Assembly: GCA_050084985.1 (NCBI GenBank)
Contig: JBITNC010000001.1
Coordinates: 198,214,001 to 198,278,000 of the forward strand
Direction: 5' to 3'
Length of the DNA stretch: 64,000 nucleotides
DNA from: Nageia nagi
Lineage: Eukaryota > Plantae > Pinophyta
How positions within the stretch are numbered: position 1 is the first letter of the stretch; the number at the start of each line of letters is the position of its first letter. The translations under genes were made by a program, and so were the position numbers. Below the pieces are notes generated by a model. The model worked only from the letters and a program-made list of their open reading frames with translations, made no database searches and was not told the origin of the DNA. Positions 3,950-53,200 of the stretch are shown here, in pieces.

Positions 3950-5079
3950 TGTGGCATGCCATTTGAGCCAATGAACAATTGTGTCATGGTCACTTTGTAA
4001 TCTAGTGTTTTGTTTATGATCATGTTGTACATGTGTAACTCAAGCAAGAGCTTATGGTCTGCGGACCCCACTGTGAGCCTAGTAATGGGACGTCTCCCCT
4101 TGAGTAGTGTTGTGTTAACTTGTGATGGGTTATCTCGGATTGTGGGAATCCCTCGATAGGCATGAGTCTTGTATAGTCCAAAGGTGCATAAAGGAGCATA
4201 CCAGCGTTGGGAAGGCCCCACATACCCCACATCAACTTGAGGAGGCCCATTAGACCCCACATCAACCTCGAGGGCCTTTATGACCCCCATGTTGGCACAC
4301 TGGGCCCATGGCACCCCCACGTTAGAATACTGGACCAATATGACCCCCACGTTGGCATGGTTGACCTATTAACGCCAACGTTGGAATAGACTTGGCTTAG
4401 GATGATAATGAGGTATGATGGATAGACACGTGAGGCTATATATTGAGGATGGAGCTCCATGAGGAGGTTAGCTATTGATTTTACGTTTTCTATACAGAAC
4501 CCGATCAAGTAGACAAGTCTTGGCAGTGCCAAGCATTATTCCTAGACGGCGTCTAGAGGAGTGACATGGATGGGAGCCTGGCATTCTACGACTTAGGTGG
4601 GTCACCTAGTCCATCCGGTGGTATTCTGAGGGCGAGTTTCTACTTTCAGTGGTCGCTAGGGTTCTAGGAGGCTCCTTCACAGGAGAGGATTCGGAGTCTG
4701 AGGGAGTGAGTCTTTCCTATTGGTGTTCGGCTTGCAGAAGGGTTTGGAACTAGATTTGATCTATTGAGATCCTCATTGTACTCCATCATCATATCATAAT
4801 ATAATCCATCTCATTGTGTCTCTCTCCATTCTATTGTTCATTGTTGTGTATGTGTTGTGTCTCTTGTATATTGGTGTTGGAAGCTTGTTCTGGCTCCATA
4901 TTGTTGTGTGTCCCCATCGTTGGTAATTCTGTGTTGTCCATTGTTGTTGTAAGGCATTTGTGAGGTTAGCAGAGTGTTGGGGAAGCCCTAGGGGCTGATG
5001 TTAGCATTGGGTGGATCTCATTTGTTGTTGTGTGTTATCCGAGAGCCCTAGGAGGCCCACGTTGGTGCATTGAGGTGTT
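3950..5079 (+). mobile_element. Solo-LTR-like insert H (3'-truncated) in the RNase H of Copia A; same family as 13822-14960
   Basis: The RNase H frame is split between FHD*TKY and YINTKYH, with tgtac on both sides (3945-3949, 5080-5084). Starts TGTGGCATGCC. Shares GGACCCCACT(G/A)TGAGCC and GATTGTGGGAATCCC with the revcomp of 13822-14960. Has ~30 bp CCCAC(G/A)TTGG subrepeats at 4215-4385 and a TATA-like motif near 4436. No terminal CA. Confidence 0.75.
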
Positions 5080-10459: not shown

Positions 10460-12620
10460 TGTTGTGCCCACATAACACACCCCAAATACAAGATTTTGGG
10501 TACCCTATTTTTGCAAAGGCAATTAGGTGTGTTGCCTAGAGATTGGCCTTAGGTAACAGATAGCTGACTCTGATGTAGTATGGAGATGATATTAGGGAGC
10601 GATGCATAGAAATTATTTGTTTAAGACCTTGAAGTGATTCAGAGCATCCAATCACCAGTTTTAGAGCCAAGGCACAAGAATTGAGGCTTTGATGTCACCA
10701 AAAAGAAAAAAAATGGTGCCTAGGGTGAGGGTAAGCCCATTTTTGACAAAAAATTGAAAATTCATTTGAATACATGGGAGGATGCACCATCAAATTTCAC
10801 ATCTTATGGCTAAAGGAATTTCCAAAATGGTCTAGACATGCACACCTAGAGGCTACGCGTAATTTTCCAAGCTTTGCCATCATCAAACACAAAAAATGTG
10901 TGCCTAGAGGTGAAATACAATTTGTTTTGGTCAAAATTTCAAATTTCACAAAATTTCATGAGGATATACCCATTGGGATTATACACAAGTTGGTCCAAGA
11001 AACATCAAAAAAAGACAAAAAATGCTCAATCCAAGGCTATGCATAGATTTTTGGGCTTTGATGCCATCAAACATAAAAAAACATGTGCCTAGGATAGAGG
11101 AAGACCAATTTGGCATGCAAAACACACCTTTGGGAGGGATCAAATGAGGCTACAAAGCATGCAGAATGCATTGAAGGGACATTTGAGCACCAAAACTTGA
11201 GCATTTGAGCACCAAACATGAGCTTTTTTACCAAACTTGCACACCACACTTGGGCACTGAAGCCAATTTTTTATCAAAGTGCTCAAAATTCTAGAATTTG
11301 ATCCCAAGCTCCAAAAACCCTCAAACCAATCTTAAACACCTTCAAGATCCATCACCTATCCATCCATGGCCATACTAGATCCATCCGGACACTTTTCAAA
11401 AAATTTATGAAATCACCCACCCCCCCCCACCATCATTTTCAAGATTTTAGACCAAATATCCAATTTTTTGGAAAATCCTCACCAAATTGCTCAAAATTTT
11501 GACAAGATCACTCAAACCAAGATTGAATCTACATTTCAGCGAAAAGAGTACTCAAAGATCGTGGAAGAGATCCAAAACAGGCTCAATAGTCATAAGATCC
11601 TTTGTAAAAGGATCAATTTTCAATGTATATAGACTAAAGTGGTTAAAAGGATGAATGTTTTCTCCTACCACTTCAAATGTAATGTCGTTTTTAGTTTCGT
11701 ATTTCAATTTCAATTAGGTTATAATTAGGGCAACACCCAAAAATTGGCCTCAAAAAGTCTATAAATAGACCATAGGGGGTCACTTTTGATGGAGAATGTT
11801 CAAGTGTAACAAAGGCCAAATTTTATGAAAATTGAAATTTTTTGTAATTGAGGAGCAAATTGATGTATGATTGCATAACTCTTTTATGAACTTAATACAA
11901 GTGGCTAAATATTGATTCAAAGTGGTTTTATCATTGATTGAAGTTGTGGATTGATCCTTGAGAGCTTTTTGTTGTGATTTGAATATTTTTGTGCCTTCTC
12001 TTTGAAAACTCAAGAGTTTTAGGAGAATTTTTTGGAAATATTTTAAAGTGTTTGAATCATACCAAATTGTTCTGAATCCATTGATTACATGTTTAAATTG
12101 TTCATAACCAATCCGTTTGTGTGCCCCATGCTAAGCAACTTTGCTTTTCACTCTTCTTTGAAACGATTTGGACAATAGTCATTTGTTTCAAAGCTTGATG
12201 AATTGAACGGGATTTCCTAAATTGATCTAAAAGAAAGAAAGTTTAGACAATGTCGCATTGTGATGATCTTCTTTGAAATCTAGCCAAGTATCGCCTCATT
12301 CTCAACCTTTTTCCTTTTCTTTATTTTTACAATCTTTAAAATCCATAGCAACTTTCGAACATTGCATTATAAACACCTCAATCCCTATAAAAAACGTGAG
12401 TTAACATCTATTACCTCTATTACACCACTCAGCTGATTCCCATAACAAGACCCACACAATTTAAGCTTGCATTAATAATGCAAACTTCCATAAGAAACCT
12501 TGGGGTATCAACTCTTAAAAGAGGAGATTAGCAATGCGATCTCACCTAATGTTGGGTTGCTTTTCCGGTTGATCACCTCATGGCAAGTCTCGTGTAAGAA
12601 GAAAGAATTCCTTCCCAACA
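10460..12620 (+). mobile_element. Large solo LTR C (2161 bp), probably Gypsy non-chromovirus (Athila/Tat-like)
   Basis: TGTTG...CAACA termini, TSD ctact/ccact, CTATAAATAG at ~11759, no PBS, PPT or pol. The 5' end resembles the revcomp ends of 13393-21290 and 22331-25245. Lineage assignment is inference. Confidence 0.85.
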
Positions 12621-12751
12621 CCACTTTAGAGGAATTTTGTAATAGGCTTACTAGGGAAGAAGTGAAGCTTTCCAATATTGAGTCCTCTTCCTCCACCTCT
12701 AAAGCCTTAGTAGCATCCAAACCTAAGGGCAAAGGCAAGTCAAAGCTCAAG

Positions 12752-13366
12752 TGTAGACGCTTAAAAATGAAATTATTATTTATTAAATAATTCATTTTAT
12801 AGCATTAAGGCATATGTATTGTAAAGAGGGTTAGAAATATACCCAAGGCAATATAATCAATGTAATGGACCATCGTGTAATGTAAGAGCTATCAAATATC
12901 AAAAGGTACACCTTAAACAATGTAAAAGGCAATGATCCCAAGAATCAAAGAAGATCAAAACATAGCTATAAAAGAACATCCAAGGCAACATAAATGATAT
13001 TGGTGAATATCAAGAGAAAGAGATCAGAATATCATTTCTACCCAACCAACAATGGTGTTTTGTAACACCACATTTGCATAGATCTGTTAAACCATTCATC
13101 TTGCTTCACACATTTTTATTTCTGTTCGTGGATTTGCGTCTTTCACACAGCTAACAACGTGCTCTTAGGCCGTTGGCACCGTTTTCTTCTTATGGTATAC
13201 TATTGCGATCAATGTATGATTTCCTTTATGGTGCTTGGATGCGAGTTTGATGAAGGTACATTGTTATCATGTTTGTTTGATGCCATATTTATGATATATG
13301 CTTCAATATTATATTGTAGACAAATAGTTTGTCGATTTATTATTCAAGCATTATTTTTAGTCTACA
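12752..13366 (+). mobile_element. Solo LTR D (615 bp)
   Basis: TGTAGAC...GTCTACA termini, TSD tcaag/ccaag, CTATAAAAG near 12966. The gag frame of B rejoins on removal. Confidence 0.85.
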
Positions 13367-13821
13367 CCAAGCCTAAACCTAACTCTCCCTTTTGTTGACG
13401 TGTATTTCTTTTCCCCACACAGGAAAGGACACCGTCGATGAGTGGTGTAGCATTACTTACCCCCGCTTGAAAGGACTTTAACCCCAAGGTTTCTTCAAAT
13501 TATTATGGGCTTTAGGTTTTTGGTATAACACCTTTTAAGCAATGGTGGTTGATAGTCGACAAGATAGCTTCAGGGGAGGTATGTGCTTGGGGATGGTTAC
13601 TCACAATTATGCGGACCTATTAGGCTTTATCTCAATCAATGTTCACGTGGAAGCACACAAAGCAAAGGGAATATAAAGTGGGATACGAAAGATTTAACAA
13701 TTGAAAGAAGGATAAGTGATAGGGTCTCATTGTTGTGCAAGGTTTGAAGCTTTCATCTCTCAGATTTATTAGGAACTTCTACTAAGGTTATCAAGCATGG
13801 GAGGAAGCAACTGAGTTTGGA

Positions 13822-14960
13822 TGTAATGATATCAGCAAATTCAATTACAATCAAGTCAAACTAAGACATCCAATATGTAAATACAAACCCTATTATGCTA
13901 ACGTTGCATCTTCCTAACACATACACACCTCACAATGCCAACGATAGGCCAGAAACACAATATACAACACAATAATGCTCAACTCATGCACACAAGGAAC
14001 AATATGAACACAAAGTTGAGATCCAAATGAGCCCATGGCTTGTATTATGATCAACAATGAAGTACAATACAAAATATGCCCAAAGGGCTGATGTTAGCCT
14101 CCTGGAAGCTGAACTAGACGAACTATGGGACAGCAGTGCCTCCTCACAATTTGACTCCTCCCCATCGAAGGGGCCCTCCTCAGATCTGGATAACCACTCG
14201 CGTGGTAGAGACTCCGCCTCAGATCCACCGAATGGGCAATGGTGCTCCCCCAATTACTGTAGATTGTCAAGTTCCTTGTGCTTGCCAACCCCCTTAGGTG
14301 CTTCACCTATGGAATACACTTAGCACTCCACTAAAATTGTGTCCACCGGACGATGTAGAAGTGTAAGAGTAATAATAATCAAGTGCGTCCAACAAATGAG
14401 CCTCCAAGTCTTCTTATACTCTCAACCAGGTCCTAGATCTCACCTCGGAATCATCACTAGACTCTAAGGCCCTAACGTTAGCCTCCAAAGGGCCCGAGAT
14501 GCCCAACGTGGGTACCTAGGTATCAAGCATGCCAACGTGGGATTCTTGGGTGCCATAAATGCCAACACAAGGTCAAGGGATGCCACGCATGCCCATGTGG
14601 GTCTAGGTGCCATGCGTGGGAGCCTAGGTGTCTGTAATGGGCCAACATGGGGTCTAAGGGACTCCCCAAGGCTGGCGCAAGCATGCAATCCTCAATCCTG
14701 GTTAATTAATGTATACAAGCTCTTGGGATTCCCACAATCAAGTCCGAGATCTCCAAGTACATTAATATCTCCTATTCTTCACTTGGGAGGGAAATGTGCC
14801 ACTAGGGGCTCATAGTGGGGTCCATGGACCAATTAATTCTTATCCCAAGTTATACAAAACAATTACAAGATAACTTTTAAATAAACTCCAAAAGGAATGT
14901 TATTAAGATGTCCTTTTTGGCTCTTACATTATTTTTATATAGTACAAAAGGGATGTTACA
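13822..14960 (-). mobile_element. Solo LTR G (1139 bp) nested in E
   Basis: TGTAATGAT...GATGTTACA termini (TGTAACATCCC start on the minus strand), TSD ttgga/tagga, ~30 bp AACGTGGG subrepeats at 14470-14660; homologous to 3950-5079. Confidence 0.75.
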
Positions 14961-15745
14961 TAGGATCACTTCCAAGCGAGAGCACGGGGCAGTAGTTAGG
15001 GTGGACAAAGGGGTGAAGTGAAATATTCAATTATCTACGTCCCAATAGATAATTCCAACCAAATGTCATAAGAGTAAAGTAATTCAAAATACCACAACTT
15101 TATGCAAACCATAGAAACGGTCATTCATACATTTAAGAAAGACATTCAAATATATTTTCCTAAAGTACGAGACTTTCAAAGAAAATGCTTGTAAATGCAT
15201 AAACAACACAACAACATCATCATGTCATTTACATATCTATGATTCCATGAAATGAGAAACTGCACTTGCATTTAAAACAAAGTTTTCCAAAATGATAGAT
15301 CATACACACATTTAGAAACTTCAACTCCAAAGTGCTTTTCAAAAGATTTGCATTCAACTCAAAGAAAGACTATTAGGAAACATGCAACTTTTCATACATC
15401 AGAGGATTCTTGGTCTATCTATCTATATCTCTTTCTTTCTATTCTCCTCCCTCTCTTTCTCAAAAATGACCTAGCTAGGGTACTTATAGCATATGTCTAA
15501 CAAATTCATTAAATGAAGCGTCGCCCTAATATTAATTGCAGTGTTGCCCTAAACAACAAAACAACGCTAATACTACTTTGAAAAACATAAACCATCAACA
15601 AAGCAAAACTACGGCTACACAATACCACTCGAATGTCACATCACATCAAGTCTTCTTGCAGCTATGGGAGCAAAAACTCATTCGTCACAGCGTAAGTTAA
15701 AATAATAATTATCTTGAACTGAAAAATAAAATATGCATTTATCAA

Positions 15746-18700
15746 TCAACCCTTTGTAGGACCGGAAGCTAAACCGCAAGCAACATCAAAGACATCCTTG
15801 GAAATCCTATGGGACTTGTCATCAAAGAAAGCCCTAGCCTTGGAGAGCCCTATAGCAAGTACCCCTGCCAAGTCGTTATCCTTCTTGTTATGAAAATCCA
15901 AGATGTACTAAGAAGTGCATTCCATTTGGAATTTCCAAACGAGCAAATGTTGTTGATTCTCGATGTGTCCCTCCCCCAATAGGTTTACGTCCTTGGTAAA
16001 GATAAGCTCTCGGATGGTATTTTGAACTTCTTAAATCACGAGCTCAACTCTCCTCGCACTACTGTCTTCATTCATAAACCTGATTGGTTGCACAAACTGG
16101 CTCATCTAGAAGGTTAAGATAAACAACAAATTGGTCCTAGCCTTGGTCAAATTGTCACTTTCCCCTATTGCAAACCTTAGCCAACGCAGATGGTAGGCAA
16201 ATTCTTGGCAGAATTGTATCCTGCCTGCTTGTCCTGCTAACATTATTTTCAGATTCTAGATGGTTTGCTCATGGTTCTGAAAACCCTGCAGAAACTAGGA
16301 AATGGTTGCATTTGTGTTTTATTCTGCTTTCCACTCATCTGTGAGGGCAATCAATCAAAGTGAGAGCCATTGACCAAGGTCTCTTTGGTAATGGTGATAC
16401 CAATGTTCAGGGAGGCCTGTAATTTAATGTCTTCATGGACATTTTAGCGATTTCTATTTCCTTTACCAATTTATTTTTACCAACCACCTCCTTTATTGTA
16501 TTCTTCCTCTCGATACCTTGGTTGACCATCTCATCCACATTATAGTTAATGGCATGTTTGCGCCTAGCCCATCCAATCTTCTTAACTTTGAATTCTTCGA
16601 TATGGACCCGCAAATATTGAAGATCCTGTGGATGTTTCTTTTTTGAGTAGCACTTGTTGATGGTCATCGTGTCTTTTTTCATAGACATTAAAGTGTCGAG
16701 TTATTCGATGGGGGATTCCTTGGAGGCACTTTTCCTCTTCTTGCTAGATTCTTCATCATCACTGTGATAGCTCATTCGCAGATCCTTGATGACTACATCA
16801 ATATCAAAATTATATTTCTTTTGCGGACCAGAACTTTATGCAATATTAGCCAAGGTGGTATCTGTATTAGTGTGAGTGGAGTCTTTGGGGGTCTCCTCGA
16901 TTCTTAGCTGTTGGTTCTTAACATCATCCAGCTTATCTTTGATCCTTAATGGTTTGTTGCTGCCATGTTCCAGTTGCTTCTTTTTCTTCCTTTGCTCTTC
17001 ATCTTCACCGTTTCTTCCTCATCTCCACTACTCCCTGTTGCCGAGGTTTTGCTCAGCTTTGAGGGTTTGTCGAGGGTCATCTTGGGTGCTTCTTTCTTAG
17101 GAGATGACCATCGCTCCCTCCTCGGAGTAGTGGATTCAAAAGAAGCAACTTGCTTCTCAGATGCTGATCCAGTTGGTAAAGTTTCATTGGCTACTTCGGC
17201 TTCAGACTCTCCATCAACGTCCACAATCTGGGTGTCTCCCGTATCGAGCTGCGAGTCTTTGTCATCCTCATGTCCCCTTACTATTTCTCCTTCTCCTGAA
17301 TCAGACTCGGATGGACTAGAGGATTCGAAGGATGTCTTGGAATTTGAGGACAAACTAGAATGATGAGGCGAATTAGGCCCTTCTAGCTGATTTACAGCAA
17401 GTGCTTTGCTCTTATGTGTGAGCCTCCACCTCAATAGGTTCAGGAAACTTAACTTCTACATGATATTCTATGGTTGTCAAGAGATTAGGGATGGCCAAGG
17501 GATTTTTAGCCCTGACCGACATTATAGGCATTATAGGGACATCCTTTGGGGTAGCATCCTCGAGTTGTTGCAATGGAAAATCAGGGTACCTAGTTTCAGC
17601 TATAATATGGACATCTTGGTAATTTCTTTCACAACAGAATGGATTTCTGGTAGAGAGTTGCCTTAGGTAGCATGCTCGCCTACCCGCCCTTGGCATCTCC
17701 TCACTCTTGTTGAAGAGGTAGATTTCTCACCTGGAGCCGCTTGGGATTTGTCTAGATTTTGGATTCTTCGATCAATCCAGCCTTCTGCTGCCAACACTTG
17801 ATGTACCTCCTGAATTTGCTTATCATCTCTTTTATTCATGTATCTCTCCTTGTCTCCTAGAGACCTGTGATCATAAATTATTGGGTTTCTAAAGGTTCTT
17901 CTGTAGAAGACCTGAATTTGCCCTTCAGGATCATAATGAGAAGCTGCCTGCTCCTCGGAGAAGTGATAATAAGACAACTTCGTCCTCATCTCCTTGGCCT
18001 CCTGCCAAGTTGAACAAGTATATTCCTCGATGGAAATGGGGAGGTTTCTTGTGGCATTCTTTTTTTCCATATATTTTCGTGTAGAAACAGCAATTGCTTG
18101 CAAAATTCCATGAGAATTAACCGATTATTAGCATGGCGAGGCAAGAGATATGGCCTGAACTCATAACCGTAGACCCGAATATATGTATATGAGGGGTCAT
18201 CTAAGAACTAATCCACATGCCCCCAGATGGCTTCTACAGAAGAATATGATATCCTTTTCACCATTTGCCTTCCCTTTATCTCCTTGTATATTTGGTATTC
18301 CCATCCGAATCGCATAATGATCCCACCTGGATTCCAACCACCATTTGGGATAAGCCTTCCATGTAGGTTTCGTTGGATCATTCAAATGTTTTGTATCTAC
18401 ATGGGCCGACTTTCTATTTTTGCCATGGAGAAGGAGATTGACAAGATATGAATTCATGTGGAACCTCTTCGAAGAGCCAATATGAGCCAATTGATAGAGG
18501 GGGGAATCGTTGATTATTTTTCTCCATCAGATCCTTTGCCTATTCCCAATTACAACAATGAAACCGATGAATTCCTTTTTGAACTTGAGGTTGTCCTCTT
18601 TACTGGTGACCCAAGACAACATACTGATAATCATTGAGACAATGGGATAGAAATGTTGTCTCTTTGCGTTAATTAATTTATTCCCAATGAATTCTTTGCT

Positions 18701-19204
18701 TTCGTTCTCGAGCCAATCTTGGATGAGATCTCCAGCTCGTTGAGATTTCTCGTAATAATCCAGGGAATCCTTTTCGGTGTAGATGACCCCTTCGTTACTC
18801 CAAACGAAAGCCTACTCGATGCCCTCCGAGGAGAAATTGAGGATCTTATTGCCATCTGTGTCATAAAGAGCATGAGTTTTGTAGTTGGCATGCTTACCAA
18901 CTTCGTAACAAGGCTTGGGGAAAGGTGTGGCAAACAAGATAATGGTGGCCATGGCCAATCCGAAGGTACAAATGACTTCATTAAGCATTTGATTCTTTTC
19001 TAAACTGTTGATGGATTGCAAAGTCCAACTGGGATCAGTATGTGACTAGTAAGTATCCCGAATATTGGAGAGATTATTCTTGAACTTGGCTTCTTTCAAG
19101 GGATCTTTGGGGTTCTCCTTGGTGAATTTGATCCGAGTGGGTTCAGTCAACCTTGCTAGCTGAAGCTCTCAAGTCTTTCTCAATTTGGAGTTTATCTTTG
19201 ACAT
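15746..19204 (-). pseudogene. Degenerate ~1150-codon accessory ORF inside element E (globular N-terminal domain, S/E/D-rich linker with basic patches, helical C-terminus)
   Basis: ATG at 19204 (MSKINSKLRK) follows a TTTGTTTTATAG acceptor-like site. Collinear ORF fragments at 19021-18812, 18490-18197 (FHMNSYLVNLLL), YIRVYGYEFRPYLLPRHANNRLILMEF near 18190-18100, 18103-17663, 17434-16946 and 16688-16407, ending ...GLASGPTKG* at 15746. No RT, IN or PR motifs. Confidence 0.75.
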
Positions 19205-19484
19205 CTTGATCCTATAAAACAAATCAAGCTAGTGTGGATTGGACTAACTGATGAACACAATGGAATGGTACGAGTGGGACGAGTATGGTGTATAATGCCT
19301 AGCAATCCTGTATGCCATTTGAGATGAAGAAGATGGTGTACCAATGCAAGTGAGACTTGAGACTTAATGCTTATGACAAAAGGTGGTCAATTTCCTTGCA
19401 TGCAACGTCCACAATATGAGCCTCAAACAATTAATGCATATGCACATCTTTAGCTCATGAGACCCATGTGAATGCATGAAAGCT

Positions 19485-20989
19485 TGGTCGCACCTTTCAA
19501 GAATGTTAGCTTTTCATCTTAGATGGATGATACGACCAGACATGAAGGTTAACCTTATGGGACGTGACCAAAATGAAGGGACAACGTACAAACACAAATA
19601 ATAGACGACTAACTAAATAAAACTAAATTTGGGTGAGCATCTAAGTGTGGGACCCCTTCCTAAAAATGAGACTTCTTTGATGCATGCACGGAAAATCCAA
19701 GACAAAGATGCAAATATGACTCATATGGATCGTGCGACCATGCAACTTTGATTAAACTTGCAATTCCAATGGGCACAGTGTTTTCAAAAGACGGATCCTT
19801 ATCTTCTTGAGACTTTGCGACCATGCATCCTTAAGATGGCCGTTGCAAAATGAAGCCAATGCAAATTTTAATGACTAAAAAAAAGCTGGCCAATAAATGT
19901 GGGCCGTTTGACTTTAATGCAAAAAAGGTTGTCACATACTCCAAGAAGGGTGCAAATGTGACTTAGTAAAACCATGCGACTAGCCCTAGGAAGGGGAAGG
20001 GATTTGCAAAATTGACCAAGTCCTCTACTCTTATAGCCATTTTGATTGCCAGGTGGTAACACTTTAAGTGTCAAATGAAGGATTTTCAACAAGTGTCCAA
20101 TCCCATGCAAAATATTGTGGTCACACCTCTCCCAAAAGATGCAAATGTATCTCCTTCAAACCATGCGACCATGGATAGGGGTCCCAAAGGCCAACACTTA
20201 GTCAAAACAAAGAAAAAAAAAGGAGGTGGTCGCATGGTTCCCAAAAGATGCAAATATAAACTTTTCAAACCATGTGACCAACAAGAAAAGTCCCAAAATG
20301 GACAACTTTAACCAATCTTCGGCCCAAGAGTGCAAAAAGGGGTGTTCGTGCCCTTTTCAAAGATAGAAGTACAACTTTTCCTAACCAGGCGAACAGCCTT
20401 TAAAGGTATAAGCTAACGCTTAGCTGAATTCTAAAGACCAAAACATAGGAATGGGGTGGTCGCACCCTAAGAAGAAGATGAAATTGTAACTTTTGCCAAC
20501 CATGTGACCACCTTGGAGCAACACATTGGACCAGCTGAAGTAAAAATAAAATTACTCTACTTACTTTTATATTGGCCTATCATGCCACGTGTCCACTGCC
20601 GAATGGCTAGAATGGAGATCGAATGAGATCATGAAGGTCAAAATGGGGGTGGTCGCATGTCTCCCAAAAGATGCAAATGTAACCCTTGGAAATCATGCGA
20701 CCAACTTGAAGGATGGATTTAAAGCATGCTTAGCCAATTTATAGGCTCAAAATTGTATTGAAGGGGTGGTTGCACCTTTTCTAAAAGATGGAAAGGTGAC
20801 TTTTTAAAACTGTGCGACCACCTTTGACTTAACAGATTTCCAACCTTTTGCTTTAGTCTCTTGCCTTTTTATAGACCATTTCAGGTGCCAAGCGTTATCA
20901 AAGGGGCAGTTATTTTAGAGGGAAAGTAAGGATTATGATTGCAACCTTAAAAATAGACAAAAATATATCCTCCCTTAGCCACACGATCA
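19485..20989. repeat. Array of ~11 inverted-ended 54 bp units (TGGTCGCA-N38-TGCGACCA) in the U3 of E
   Basis: Units at 19485-19538, 19929-19982, 20118-20171, 20227-20280, 20343-20395, 20457-20510, 20650-20703, 20767-20820 and 20936-20989, plus partial units ending at 19740 and 19823. Shared core AAAGATGCAAATGT. Confidence 0.85.
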
Positions 20990-23460
20990 CCACTTTTGAT
21001 GTGAAAATTTGGTGATTTTGCATGAAACATGATTGGACCATCATCCGACACCTGCATTTCCTTCGTTTTCTTACTTGCATGGATACCTAAAAAGCATTCT
21101 TTCATTTGTTGTAAGCAAGTATTCTGGGTGAATTTTAAAGTTGCACTTCGAGCTCACCTAGCTAGCTTATCTTCATTATGCTCCGAAAAGTGGTTCTCCC
21201 AAAGCTCAATTCTTGCTAAGTTCCATTGTCATCCTTTGATTGAGGGTCCCCAAATTTGTAAAAAATTAGGGGGGTGTTGCTTTGTCAACACCTTCCAAGG
21301 AAATCCTCAACCACAAGAGTACACTCCCACAAACTCTTCCAAGAAAAAAGAAAATTCCCCTATCACTTGCACCTATGTGGGAAGAGTCATGCAACACCAA
21401 AATGTTGGAAGAAATTACAAGACTTAGAAGATGCCAAGAAGAAACACAAAATTGATGTTCATAGCAACGCCATTAATGTTCAAGGAAAATACACTAAGTC
21501 TTGTTCTGAAACTTGGGTTTTCGATTTTGAAGCTACCCACAATATGACTCCTTCAAAGGAGTCCTTTACCTCACTTGGTTTGAGTTCCACATCCAGTATT
21601 GAGGTTGGTGATTCCTCTTTCATTCCCGTACGAGGGAAAGGTTATATTCTTATCAATGGTGGCCGAATCAATGATGTTTTATATATGTCATATATTTTTG
21701 CTAGTCTCCTTTTTATCTACCAAATTTGCAATTATGGGAAGAGAAAGACAGTTTTGTTCACTCCTCATGGAGTTGAGATTAAAAGTTTGTTGGAGCCTCA
21801 ATCGCTTATAACACAAGGGGTTGTTGATCATAGTGCTAGCCTTTATCACTTTGAAGGCTTTGATGACACTTCTTCAAGTGCATGCCTTGTTGAAATTTTG
21901 GTATGAATGGTTTGGTCATCTTAACTACAAATATTTGAAAGAATTGAGCACTCATGACATGGTAATTGGCTTGCCTAAGGTGTCTTGTCCTGATGGTGTT
22001 TGTCCTGGTTGTACACTTAGGAAACAACATCAAGATCCTTTTCCCAAAGGTATGTCACATAGAGCTTTTGCACCCTTGGAGTTACTTTATAGTGATTTGA
22101 TGGTTTTCCATCATCCCTCGTTTAATGGAGCTAAGTATGCATTTTTTCTCAAGTACAAAAGTGTTGTTTTCTCTCACTTCAAAGTCTTCAACACTTTGGT
22201 TGAGAATCAAACTTCTTCGTGTATCAAGAAGCTTCACGCAGATAATGATGGTGAGTACTTCAGTATTGAGTTTTCAGACTTCTTGGCTACACATGGGATT
22301 ATTCATCAACATTTTGTCCCACACACACCCTGTTGGGTGTTTTTCTTTCCTAACCTGGAGTAGTGAAAAAAAAACGGGCCAACACCTCAGGTGAAGGGAC
22401 ATTACTCCCTCCTGCTATGGGGACTGGTTACCCCAAAGGTTAGCTTCACGACTTATGTGAAAATAACCTAGGGGACGGCTGAGATGTTTAAAGCTACAAC
22501 CAACATGAATATCATCTATGGATTCAAGGGACTCTGAGTTCTACGTTTGGGCTTCAATTAGGCTGTTTCTGAAAAATGCTGAAAAGGGAAATCGGGGGTG
22601 CAAAGACCTTGGAAAAAATGTGTAAAATAAAATAAAATAAAACAAAGAAAAATGGTGGAAAGACCATGAGCAATCGGATGCGATGTAGGTATACAAACTC
22701 ACAGGCTTGAGACAAGTCCTTGAAAGTCGACTCACTTGGGCTCGTTGCACATTCCAAGCACCCACTATCCAATCCACTAGCCAACAACACGAATAGCTTA
22801 GTGAACAGAGCGTTAAGCCATGGCAAAGAGACAAGGCGGGACAGGGGTAGAACGGAAGGACCTAGGTGAAGTTCCTACGGTGAGCAACATTAGTGAGACA
22901 TTCCAAGGTAACCCAGCCTAAACTGCAAATAGTGAGGTACCATCAACAAGATGTCAATCAATCACTTCGCAAGATATCCAAGCAATCTCTTGTCCACTTC
23001 AATGAAATTTACAAGCTGCACCAAGTAAATCAGATTAACACCAAGCAATGATAGAACAAAACACTGATAGCACTATCAATCATTCATTCATATTCACTAT
23101 TCCAACATGAGCAAGCATCTAGATCACAATAGCATCCACATACACCACATTTAACAATTAAGAGAAATTTTGGTTTGCAAGCAAAAGTTCTTCCAATTGA
23201 TAAATTGTCAATCCCCCTACAAATGAATCAAAATAGGGTATAAATAGTCTTAGGAGCAAACAAAAGCATTGCCCTAACCTTAATCAAGAAATAAAGTGCG
23301 GTCCAACATAAATACGCCACTTGGCATTACAAAGTCTCTTCCAAAACTGTGGGAGCGAATCTTCATCCTTCACAAGTTTGGGAATAAAACAATATTTAGA
23401 AATGTCTTTGCTAGAAAATAAGACTTTTGAAACATAAATTAAAATAATTTAAAATATCAT

Positions 23461-23940
23461 CTAGGCCAATGGTGGGCCCAAGCCTGCAACTCGATCCTCG
23501 AAGCTATCAGCTAAGAATCTCGCCATGAGCTCTAATCCGCGCAACATCTCCGAGAACTTCAGCATGCTCACAGCAACAATGTCCTCAACCTCGTCCACCA
23601 ACTTCTACATCTCAACCTTCCACGTGTGAGCTTGCAGCATATGCCTCAAGTGACTCCTAGACTAGTAGGAGTTTACGTCCTCCGTCAAAATCAAGCTATG
23701 AAGATGTCTAACCTCTATCACTACTACATCAGCGTCCCAAATGGTGGTGTCCTCCAAGAAAGGAACTAGAAAATCCATCTACTCAATGCATGAGTGGGCC
23801 TTGTTGTTGATCATGGCCACCTCCTTCTTAGTCCCCTGAAAACGAGTGAGCACTTGATTGATCACACCCCAGTAGAACCAATAGTCCTCACAAAACTTAA
23901 CATCCTCGAGTCTTTGAGCTTGTGTTGAATTTCATGCCCA
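23461..23940 (-). pseudogene. ORF remnant inside solo LTR F, homologous to the C-terminus of the ORF in E
   Basis: Manual translation VINQVLTRFQGTKKEVAMINNKAH...VVVIEVRHLHSLILTEDVNSY*SRSHLRHMLQAHTWKVEM*KLVDEVED...AGLGPPLA*. One frame with three internal TAG codons. Confidence 0.65.
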
Positions 23941-23979
23941 TCTGGCCATGACCAAACGTGGGGGGTTCCGGAGACCCTC

Positions 23980-24955
23980 AGGCTTGGCACATGGCCAAAA
24001 AAGACAAGATTTTGTCTTTCTGGATCATGCGCCAGCCTTGGGGATGAATGTACTCCCCACATTGGCCTTCCTTGCTCTTTGCTCATTCAACTTGACCTTG
24101 AAGCCCATCCCGAGACCTAATCTTGCCTGGTTCTTGCTCTTTCAGGGCCCAAGCTCGTCAATTTCGCCCTTTAAGCTCAACCGAGACGCTCCCCAAGCTT
24201 GGCACATGGTTTAAAAAGTCATGTTTTTGTCTTTTCAAATCATGCACCCATCCCTCCAGCCTTCCTAGTTTGGGCACATGGTCTAGAAAGTCAAGATTGT
24301 CTTTTTGGGGAATGTGCTAGGTTGCAGGTGACCAAATTTGCTTCGTCTTGGTCTTCTGCTCCTGGGACTTAGCCAAATTTTCAAGTTCACTGTGTTCTGG
24401 TGTCTTCTAAGGCTTGGCGCATGCTCCCAAAAGTCAAAATTTTTTCTTTTTAAGGCATGCGTCAACCCCTTTGGTCATGCTGGAGCTGGATCCAAGCTTC
24501 GAAACTCCATGCCTTAGCCAATTTTCACATTTCAGCTCAATTGAATGCCTTCCTAGGCTTGGCTCATGCTCCTAAAAGACAAAATTTTGTCTTTTTGAGG
24601 CATCATCCAGCCTCCTGGGTGAGTGTACTTTGATCTTCTGAGTCTCAAGTTCATCCTACCGACCTCTTGGCTTGGGTGCATGCTTCCAAAAGACAATTTT
24701 ATTTCTTTTTGGGGCATGCACCAACCTTGAAATGTTTGAAGTCAGTTTTTTAGAGCCTCCATTCCGTCTTGGGCATCTTTCTTAGCCTAGCACATGCCCT
24801 AGAAAGACGATCTTGTCTTTTCATGGCATGTGCCGAGTTCAGGAGTGACCCAATTTGTACTTCCAAACTTGAACTTTGAATGAGGCGTCATCTTGGCCCA
24901 AGCACACATCCCAGAATGACACAATTTTGTCTTCCTAAACCATGCACCAAGCCTG
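23980..24955. repeat. Array of 8 hairpin-type 48-50 bp units in the U3 of F
   Basis: TGGCACATG..AAAAGAC-loop-GTCTTTT..CATG(C/T)GCCA units start near 23985, 24200, 24272, 24415, 24560, 24674, 24788 and 24900, separated by variable spacers. Confidence 0.85.
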
Positions 24956-26037
24956 CGAGTGGCCCAGATTCGCCTTGCTTAGTTTCTACTTGACTCAAGT
25001 TTCCCAGTTTCACCTAAACTTGACTTAGATTCCCCAGACTTAGCCATTTTTTGAGGGTCTTAGCTCTTCAACATGACACGACCAAGACTGGGTGGTTGAC
25101 TACACTTAGGTGATGGGATGATAGGCATGATTTTGAGTCAATTGAAGATGGGGAGAATCTGTACTGACTAGGTGCCAAGCAAGTGTAAATTGCAGAGGGT
25201 CCCCAAAATTGCGAAATTTTGGGGCAAGTTGTGTAGGGCACAACACACCCCAGCAAAATGGTCTAGCAAAGAGGAAAAACTATAGTTTGAAAGAGGTGGC
25301 AAATTGCATGATGCACTATAGGGATTTACCAACCATTTTTTGGCTGAGGCTATTAATTGTGCAAACTATATTCAGAATCACACACCCCATAGAGCTCTTC
25401 ATCACATGACTCCTGAAGAAGCTTGGTCTAGAACTAAGTCGGATGTCTCCTTTTTCAGAGTTTTCGGAAGTCATGCTTGGGCACATATTTAGAAGAAGAA
25501 AAGAAAGGCCAACCACTCATTTTTGTTGGCTATTGTGAGGATATGAAGGCTTATCATCTTGTTGATCCTACTACACATGATGTCTTACACTTGATGTTTC
25601 TCCTAATCCACCACTTGTTGATCTAATTTCGAACTCTTCTAATGCAAAGTCTACTATTGAGGATCTTCCACCAGTTGCCACTATGCCTTAGTGGGCCCAC
25701 ACTACAATTGAGAGGCAACCCCTTTCATTCAAGATCTTCCACCTTCCATGCAAATTCTCTCATCAGGCACTGGTCTTGTTTTTCAAACAGTCTCAAGTGA
25801 TCCACAGTCGTTTTCATAGGCTCATGGGATACTAAACTAGAATGATGCTATGGTAGCAAAGTATTCTTCTTTGATGAAGAATAAAACTTGGGATCGTGTT
25901 CCTCTTCCTCAAGGAAGAAAGATGGTTTGATATAAATGGGTGTATTGAACCAAGTATGCCGCAAATGGCTCCATTGACAAGTACAAAGCCCATCTAGTTG
26001 CTAAGGATTTTTCTTAGATTGAAGGTATTAACTACAC

Positions 26038-36625: not shown

Positions 36626-36929
36626 GTCCATCCACATTAGGATAGTTGGAGAAATGTTAGGAATGCTCCACATTAGGATAGTTGGAGAAATGTTAGGAAT
36701 GCTCCACATTAGGATAGTTGGAGAAATGTTGGGAATGCTCCAAGGGAAGCCCTAGTTCAAATCCTTGCTCTAACATGTGGAGGAGATCCAAAAATCTTGT
36801 AGAAATTGCAAGTGTAGTTGGGGCCAAGTGCAAGTCGTGGGTATTCTTTGACATAATATATACCCCTCAATTGTGGCTTCTTAGGCCAAGGTAACCCTAC
36901 AAGGGTTTTTTTCGTTGAATCAAAAAAAA
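36626..36929 (+). mobile_element. tRNA-derived SINE with a triplicated 36 bp head
   Basis: Three copies of TCCACATTAGGATAGTTGGAGAAATGTT(A/G)GGAATGC (36631, 36667, 36703), each with A-box-like TAGGATAGTTGG, then B-box-like GTTCAAATCC at ~36755. A-tail at ~36922-36929. Degenerate TSD aaagttaaattattt / aatgttgaactattt. Confidence 0.65.

Positions 36930-53150: not shown

Positions 53151-53200
<50 letters not shown>
53151..53200. repeat. (TA)25 microsatellite
   Basis: Perfect TA run. Confidence 0.98.

Follow-up and report, generated by a model that had tools for sequence, protein, structure and literature searches.

In retroviruses, the unique 3′ (U3) part of the long terminal repeat (LTR) holds the promoter and is duplicated during reverse transcription. 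In mouse mammary tumor virus (MMTV), U3 also holds the entire sag gene (PMC12789967). Here, we describe a comparable layout in a plant: E, a solo LTR on the minus strand of a 64,000-nucleotide stretch of the Nageia nagi genome (GenBank assembly GCA_050084985.1, contig JBITNC010000001.1, positions 198,214,001 to 198,278,000), hereafter the window, in whose numbering all unprefixed positions are given. We hold with good confidence that E is a solo LTR with a conserved 1,150-codon gene in its U3, ahead of the predicted promoter; that confidence covers the structure and not the function of the gene. The likeness to MMTV sag, shared in part by human immunodeficiency virus type 1 nef, is that a whole open reading frame (ORF) lies in U3 upstream of the main LTR promoter and that U3 has extra promoters (PMC12789967). 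In contrast, E belongs to a plant retrotransposon, its ORF is far longer, and no sequence relationship is expected; the sag product is a membrane superantigen.

Among plant elements, the Athila/Tat (OTA) gypsy retrotransposons (Athila, TatII, TatIII, Ogre, and Retand) share with the lineage of E a 5-bp target-site duplication, TG..CA ends, very long LTRs, and repeat arrays (PMC6317226, PMC4408406), together with a TGG primer-binding site (PBS) not of the Met type (here a PBS-like one, in a relative of E) and a long extra ORF without a common conserved domain. The stretch from pol to the 3′ LTR is the usual place of their extra ORFs and arrays (PMC7264820, PMC11963269), whereas in E both sit inside the LTR and not in the internal region. 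The LTR of E, at 6,754 bp, is also longer than the “about 5 kb” reported for OTA elements and exceeds the 6,000 bp to which the main plant survey limited its search (PMC6317226). The supplement to that survey gives TatII extra ORFs as 23% 5′ sense and 26% 3′ sense; another paper describes TatII as lacking extra ORFs (PMC4408406). Maize Grande gene23 and the Retand antisense ORFs resemble the E gene in being accessory genes with their own promoter and family-specific arrays nearby (PMC7264820, PMC11963269), and a nuclear or DNA-binding role has been proposed for them, as we do here for the E protein. Unlike the E gene, they are antisense, lie outside the LTR, and are therefore lost in solo LTRs. 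VANC of VANDAL, our working analogy, is likewise a transposon accessory protein beside family-specific repeated motifs (PMC5735166), but VANDAL is a DNA transposon, and the likeness is offered as an analogy, not as homology. The gene-in-U3 layout is known from a mouse retrovirus, and no plant description was found in the literature searched, in which subscription journals were thinly covered and the element table of PMC6317226 could hold examples; the available text of PMC13468544 and PMC3762812 mentions no LTR-internal ORF.

The solo LTR and its sister units

E spans 13393..21290 and runs from TGTTGAC (21290) to GTCAACA (13393), with inverted ends of 7 bp, between a left target-site duplication CCTTT (13388..13392, plus strand) and a right one CCTTC (21291..21295, plus strand), which match at four of five positions. 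With the insertions set aside, the gag frame of the copia host continues past the insertion site of E. Inside E, neither terminus recurs, and no junction of a polypurine tract (PPT) or PBS is convincing (two purine runs followed by TG on the sense strand and three CA-TGG matches were seen, all within the ORF), and Pfam scans of four E ORF pieces gave no gag or pol match. A sequence-only reading of the window had already described such a unit, lacking a repeated terminus, PBS, PPT, gag, and pol, and had named a hidden PPT plus a second LTR start inside E as one finding that would overturn its view; neither emerged in convincing form. With TG..CA ends and a duplication, and none of these internal features, E is a dead solo LTR.

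That reading had put E at 7.9 kb, a size we reject, although the TG..CA unit, its 4/5 duplication, and its solo-LTR nature stand. A second solo LTR of another high-copy family (13822..14960, minus strand; 1,139 bp; TGTAAC..TTACA; duplication TCCTA/TCCAA, 4/5) lies inside the 7.9 kb, so that the true LTR measures 6,754 bp once the nested element and one duplication are removed. In each of three public runs, one contig skips exactly 1,144 bases at this site, and in run X1, depth is 675-2,242 across the nested LTR against 4-226 elsewhere. The nested LTR is 60-66% like the LTRs of an element with a TGGTATCA (Met-type) PBS on outside contig L001. A relative of it lies near 4030-4880 on the opposite strand.

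Read in sense, E opens with the lineage LTR-start motif (TGTTG..CCCC..TTTGGGKACCCT; 21243..21290, minus strand), a pattern with three matches in the window versus none in 100 shuffles. An array of 52-bp units with inverted arms follows (19486..20946, minus strand), as the sequence-only reading had noted under the name of palindromic units; it comprises five complete units at 20819, 20702, 20509, 20279, and 20170 (spanning 20819-20119) plus half units, and its motif is unlike between families. Beyond the long gene comes the LTR promoter (15481..15552, minus strand), whose position is predicted from motifs: TTAGGGCAA and then a TATA-like CTATAAGTA at 15489, where a TATA at about 15485 had been expected. 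The inferred repeat and unique 5′ part (R/U5; 13393..15460, minus strand) ends in the lineage 3′ motif AACCTTGGGGT (13491) and CAACA.

Two sister solo LTRs lie close by: S2 (22331..25245, minus strand; 2,915 bp), with a perfect duplication, array, gene end, promoter at 23277, and U5, and S3 (10460..12620, plus strand; 2,161 bp), with a 4/5 duplication and the same three motifs but without detected ORF homology. A possible coding remnant was noted in S3 near 11250-11570. E, S2, and S3 share the start motif, the TTAGGGCAA-plus-TATA motif (once in each unit), and the end motif, in one order. Searching metagenome contigs with the start pattern returned 26 loci, of which 17 were dropped as chance matches, judged by how the letters outside the pattern looked, and nine, on seven contigs, are lineage members; L016 was excluded because it is contained in L023. 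Where both ends are present, the outside units share the promoter-like and end motifs too, and six of the eight units with both ends have a 4- or 5-of-5 duplication (L024m, truncated at its end, was left out of this count).

One outside unit shows what such units are. Five nucleotides past the end of L001m (3,952 bp), whose start matches that of E at 74% over 47 nt, comes a PBS-like TGG site, not of the Met type, and then a protease-like DTG ORF. The internal region (L001:1294-4516, minus strand; 3.2 kb) belongs to a non-autonomous element with this PBS-like site, two protease-like stretches, and no reverse transcriptase (RT), and beyond it lies a 91% copy of the first 1.3 kb of L001m, a candidate 3′ LTR. 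L001m thus occupies the place of a 5′ LTR, with a PBS-like site and retrotransposon-type coding sequence behind it, in a sister family and not in E’s own. In DNA, S2 and L001m are alike at the start and the array, at the promoter (66% over 342 nt), and at the end (70% over 278 nt). Because a homologous unit precedes a PBS-like site and a protease-like ORF, E-type units are LTRs.

A long gene ahead of the predicted promoter

The decayed gene occupies 15746..19204 (minus strand), with its ATG at 19204 and its stop at 15748-15746; its 1,153 codons contain six frameshifts and 15 in-frame stops. Read as seven separate frame segments, it has 15 stops in 1,147 codons, against 53.7 ± 4.7 (minimum, 42) in 500 shuffles scored in the best frame per segment. 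A profile search identified 31 of 1,627 candidates as relatives of its protein, all unnamed fragments, and the natural database protein P0004, 82% identical over 133 residues, reads through two of E’s frameshifts. An outside contig (L001/L024) carries a homologue that aligns with the entire gene at 29-51%; over 593 codons, the two differ at proportions of 0.76 for synonymous sites (pS), which are saturated, and 0.40 for nonsynonymous sites (pN). On these sequence grounds, we take ORF 19204-15746 to be a real gene, as the sequence-only reading had suggested from the long decayed frame. Two further homologue searches gave 0 of 3,746 longer candidates and 1 of 5,337, and no relative from any of the searches was named or carried a Pfam domain; none of 135 pattern matches in a peptide scan of metagenome contigs was confirmed, viral contigs gave 0 matches for two patterns, and Atlas held no usable match for P0004 residues 1-175. 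The ends of the interval 17354-19482 are joined in one run X1 contig, which suggests a copy from which 2.1 kb, the N-terminal half of the gene, has been deleted.

A leader intron is supported by a candidate acceptor (19205..19220, minus strand), whose AG ends at 19212, 7 nt ahead of the start codon. E and the L001 homologue each have a pyrimidine-rich AG 7-8 nt upstream of their ATG, a shared arrangement that supports the acceptor first proposed from E and favors such an intron. The donor proposed with it, at 19493, is rejected as independent evidence, its sequence matching the right arm of the array unit, with three such matches in E (20778, 20468, and 19496). The TATA-like site near 20035 (at 20036) is likewise rejected as a unique TATA, as one of three CTATAA candidates upstream of the ORF. 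The 15 joints listed out of 55, all taken from contigs, include none between 19493 and 19212, a result with no bearing on splicing either way.

Where does the gene lie with respect to the LTR? The gene or its end is present in four units of three diverged families: E, S2, and two from the same outside contig (L001/L024). In four of four, 183-365 bp separate the stop from the promoter motif downstream, and this gap contains neither an LTR start nor a purine tract, which places the ORF in U3; the LTR start lies 1,265-5,738 bp from the promoter in all eight units with both ends, so that a hidden 3′ LTR start could not fit behind the gene. Between LTR start and promoter, the whole ORF is complete in E and partial in S2, which keeps the last ~145 codons (23904-23461). 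The C-terminal domain of S2 is 53-55% like that of the third long-ORF unit, itself a match to the L001 gene at an E value of 3e-5, and the weak direct S2-E protein match (score 62, z 7.2, reached in 0 of 100 shuffles) is the best of 36 frame pairs. The central proposal of the sequence-only reading, an accessory gene inside the U3 of a solo LTR, is supported by the motifs shared with a PBS-bearing LTR, the uniform gap, and the gene remnant in S2.

A second, short U3 ORF is open in four sister units, L007m (L007:8048-8629), L010p (L010:5391-5849), L012m (L012:7691-8419), and L012m2 (L012:10553-11110), where it measures 153-243 codons from stop to stop; it is broken in L023. Its dN/dS is 0.16-0.48 in five of six pairs, the sixth being saturated, and a TATA-like site lies upstream; these ratios mark it as a gene under purifying selection. 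The two copies scanned matched no Pfam family at cut-off, and no similarity to the long gene was detected.

Lineage, protein, and rival explanations

E likely derives from a gymnosperm Athila/Tat (OTA) gypsy lineage. The PBS-like site of L001m is of a type that we take to be tRNA-Asn, and the lineage call leans on that assumption, no RT or integrase having been recovered with these LTRs. The supplement of PMC6317226 reports a tRNA-Asn PBS in 12% of Athila, 15% of TatII, and 4% of Retand elements. We posit that in this lineage the LTR start shifted upstream and so would have taken in the array and the extra ORF, which in relatives stay between pol and the 3′ LTR (PMC11963269, PMC7264820). Reverse transcription would then copy the U3 gene into both LTRs, such that each full element would hold the gene twice, and LTR-LTR recombination would leave one copy; unequal recombination between LTRs is known to leave solo LTRs (PMC5751070).

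Several observations weigh against the structure that we favor. Among the units recovered, none belonged to a full-length element whose two LTRs both carry the ORF, none of the four ORF-bearing units has a PBS after it, and the 5′ starts of both outside long-ORF units lie off their contigs. The PBS-bearing LTR L001m shows no detected homology to the long ORF, and E is tied to it through short motifs, the long DNA match running through S2, whose protein match to E is weak and was missed by tblastn. The sole candidate 3′ LTR is preceded by a T-rich stretch with three purines in 15 and no visible PPT, and L012m, which has both ends, has neither a duplication nor a clear PBS. In the comparison of the E and L001 genes, the protein-guided alignment biases pN downward. 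The function proposed next is drawn by analogy.

The encoded protein has a conserved N-terminal region of ~470 amino acids, a Ser/acidic/basic linker, and a conserved C-terminal region of ~150 amino acids. Neither the four E pieces nor 13 locus proteins nor 29 natural relatives matched Pfam at the curated cut-off, and in the same proteins PF10536 (plant mobile domain), PF04195 (Transposase_28), and PF03078 (Athila ORF-1) were without a match at Pfam sensitivity, which sets the protein apart from OTA extra ORFs. Membership in the plant mobile domain family, raised for the N-terminal domain in the sequence-only reading, is rejected at that sensitivity. Two predicted folds were of low confidence (pLDDT, 51 and 47), and Foldseek on the second gave nothing at an E value of ≤0.001. 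Tentatively, and at rather less than even confidence, we suggest by analogy with VANC that the protein may be a nuclear, family-specific trans-activator or anti-silencing factor that binds the inverted-arm array of its own LTR. A nuclear regulator is favored by the lack of a conserved membrane segment, by the basic runs in the linker, and by an array motif that varies between families as VANC targets do.

The best-surviving alternative accepts the structure but makes the protein env-like, or a particle or integration helper, and not a regulator of transcription or silencing. In Athila and Bagy2, extra ORFs that run in sense and have spliced leaders are termed env-like (PMC7264820), and one hydrophobic 19-mer in E scores 2.07. 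Yet the matching stretch of the L001 gene scores 1.39, and seven of seven natural relatives tested peak at 0.69-1.34, so that the long-gene protein has no conserved transmembrane segment, and its linker carries basic runs; we regard this alternative as unlikely. More improbable still is that E arose from an ordinary OTA element by internal deletion, its ORF being a normal 3′ extra ORF from around which gag-pol and the duplicated LTR parts were deleted. The usual position of OTA extra ORFs and arrays between pol and the 3′ LTR would suit it (PMC7264820, PMC11963269), as would the lack of a two-LTR copy with the ORF, and S2 shows that large deletions occur in the lineage; but it needs two deletions that take out exactly one copy of each LTR part, and it must account for an ORF-promoter gap of 183-365 bp, with no LTR start in it, in four of four units of three diverged families, every LTR start lying at least 1,265 bp from its promoter. 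That the TG..CA units are instead whole non-autonomous or DNA-type elements, with the ORF as transposition gene, we consider highly improbable, for although most copies are single units with a duplication (6/8) where conifer solo LTRs are reported as scarce and under-represented (PMC5751070), and no PPT was found, the inverted ends are only 5-7 bp, Pfam gave no transposase or integrase family match, and behind L001m come a PBS-like TGG site, a protease-like ORF, and a direct repeat.

The surrounding nest and implications

E, as a gene-bearing solo LTR, sits in a nest of elements. Its host is a copia gag-pol (12632..22363, plus strand) with zinc knuckle, Pol_BBD, gag_pre-integrs, and rve domains, interrupted by E and by a 615-bp solo LTR of an unrelated high-copy family (12752..13366, minus strand), which lies in the same host gag, 26 bp from E. 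Three solo LTRs of one lineage (E, with S2 and S3 within 12 kb of it) occupy one nest. LTR pairs at 3498-3766/31742-32012 (93%) and 8462-8774/27921-28233 (79%) bracket the whole nest and show E to be enclosed by two or more layers of copia elements. Farther along the window, three direct-repeat pairs (80-90%) are probably LTRs of other elements (39827-41257/44806-46327, 46334-47330/51863-52846, and 55423-55924/63225-63729); a near-perfect 36-bp tandem repeat of 3.1 copies lies at 36631-36742 and a (TA)25 microsatellite at 53151-53200. On an outside contig, ORFs at L007:397-3001, which we take to resemble a hAT-type transposase, adjoin a solo LTR of the lineage.

The LTRs of plant elements pass for non-coding, and solo LTRs for harmless element ends; here, a conserved gene sits in the LTR and outlasts solo-LTR formation. 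LTRs this long lie above the 6,000-bp limit set in the main plant survey (PMC6317226), so that in giant genomes such families would escape notice or be split up. A U3 gene would also be counted two times, once among the 5′ and once among the 3′ sense extra ORFs, and the TatII figures of 23% and 26% could hide LTR-internal genes (PMC6317226). The E protein represents a new, unclassified family that bears on the role of retrotransposon extra ORFs. We further speculate, while holding it doubtful, that a gymnosperm gypsy lineage uses U3 as an exchangeable cassette for at least two unrelated genes and that its solo LTRs stay complete transcription units, from which full-length copies continue to receive a family-specific anti-silencing or activating protein. 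If this is true, element removal by LTR recombination would leave a counter-defense gene in place.

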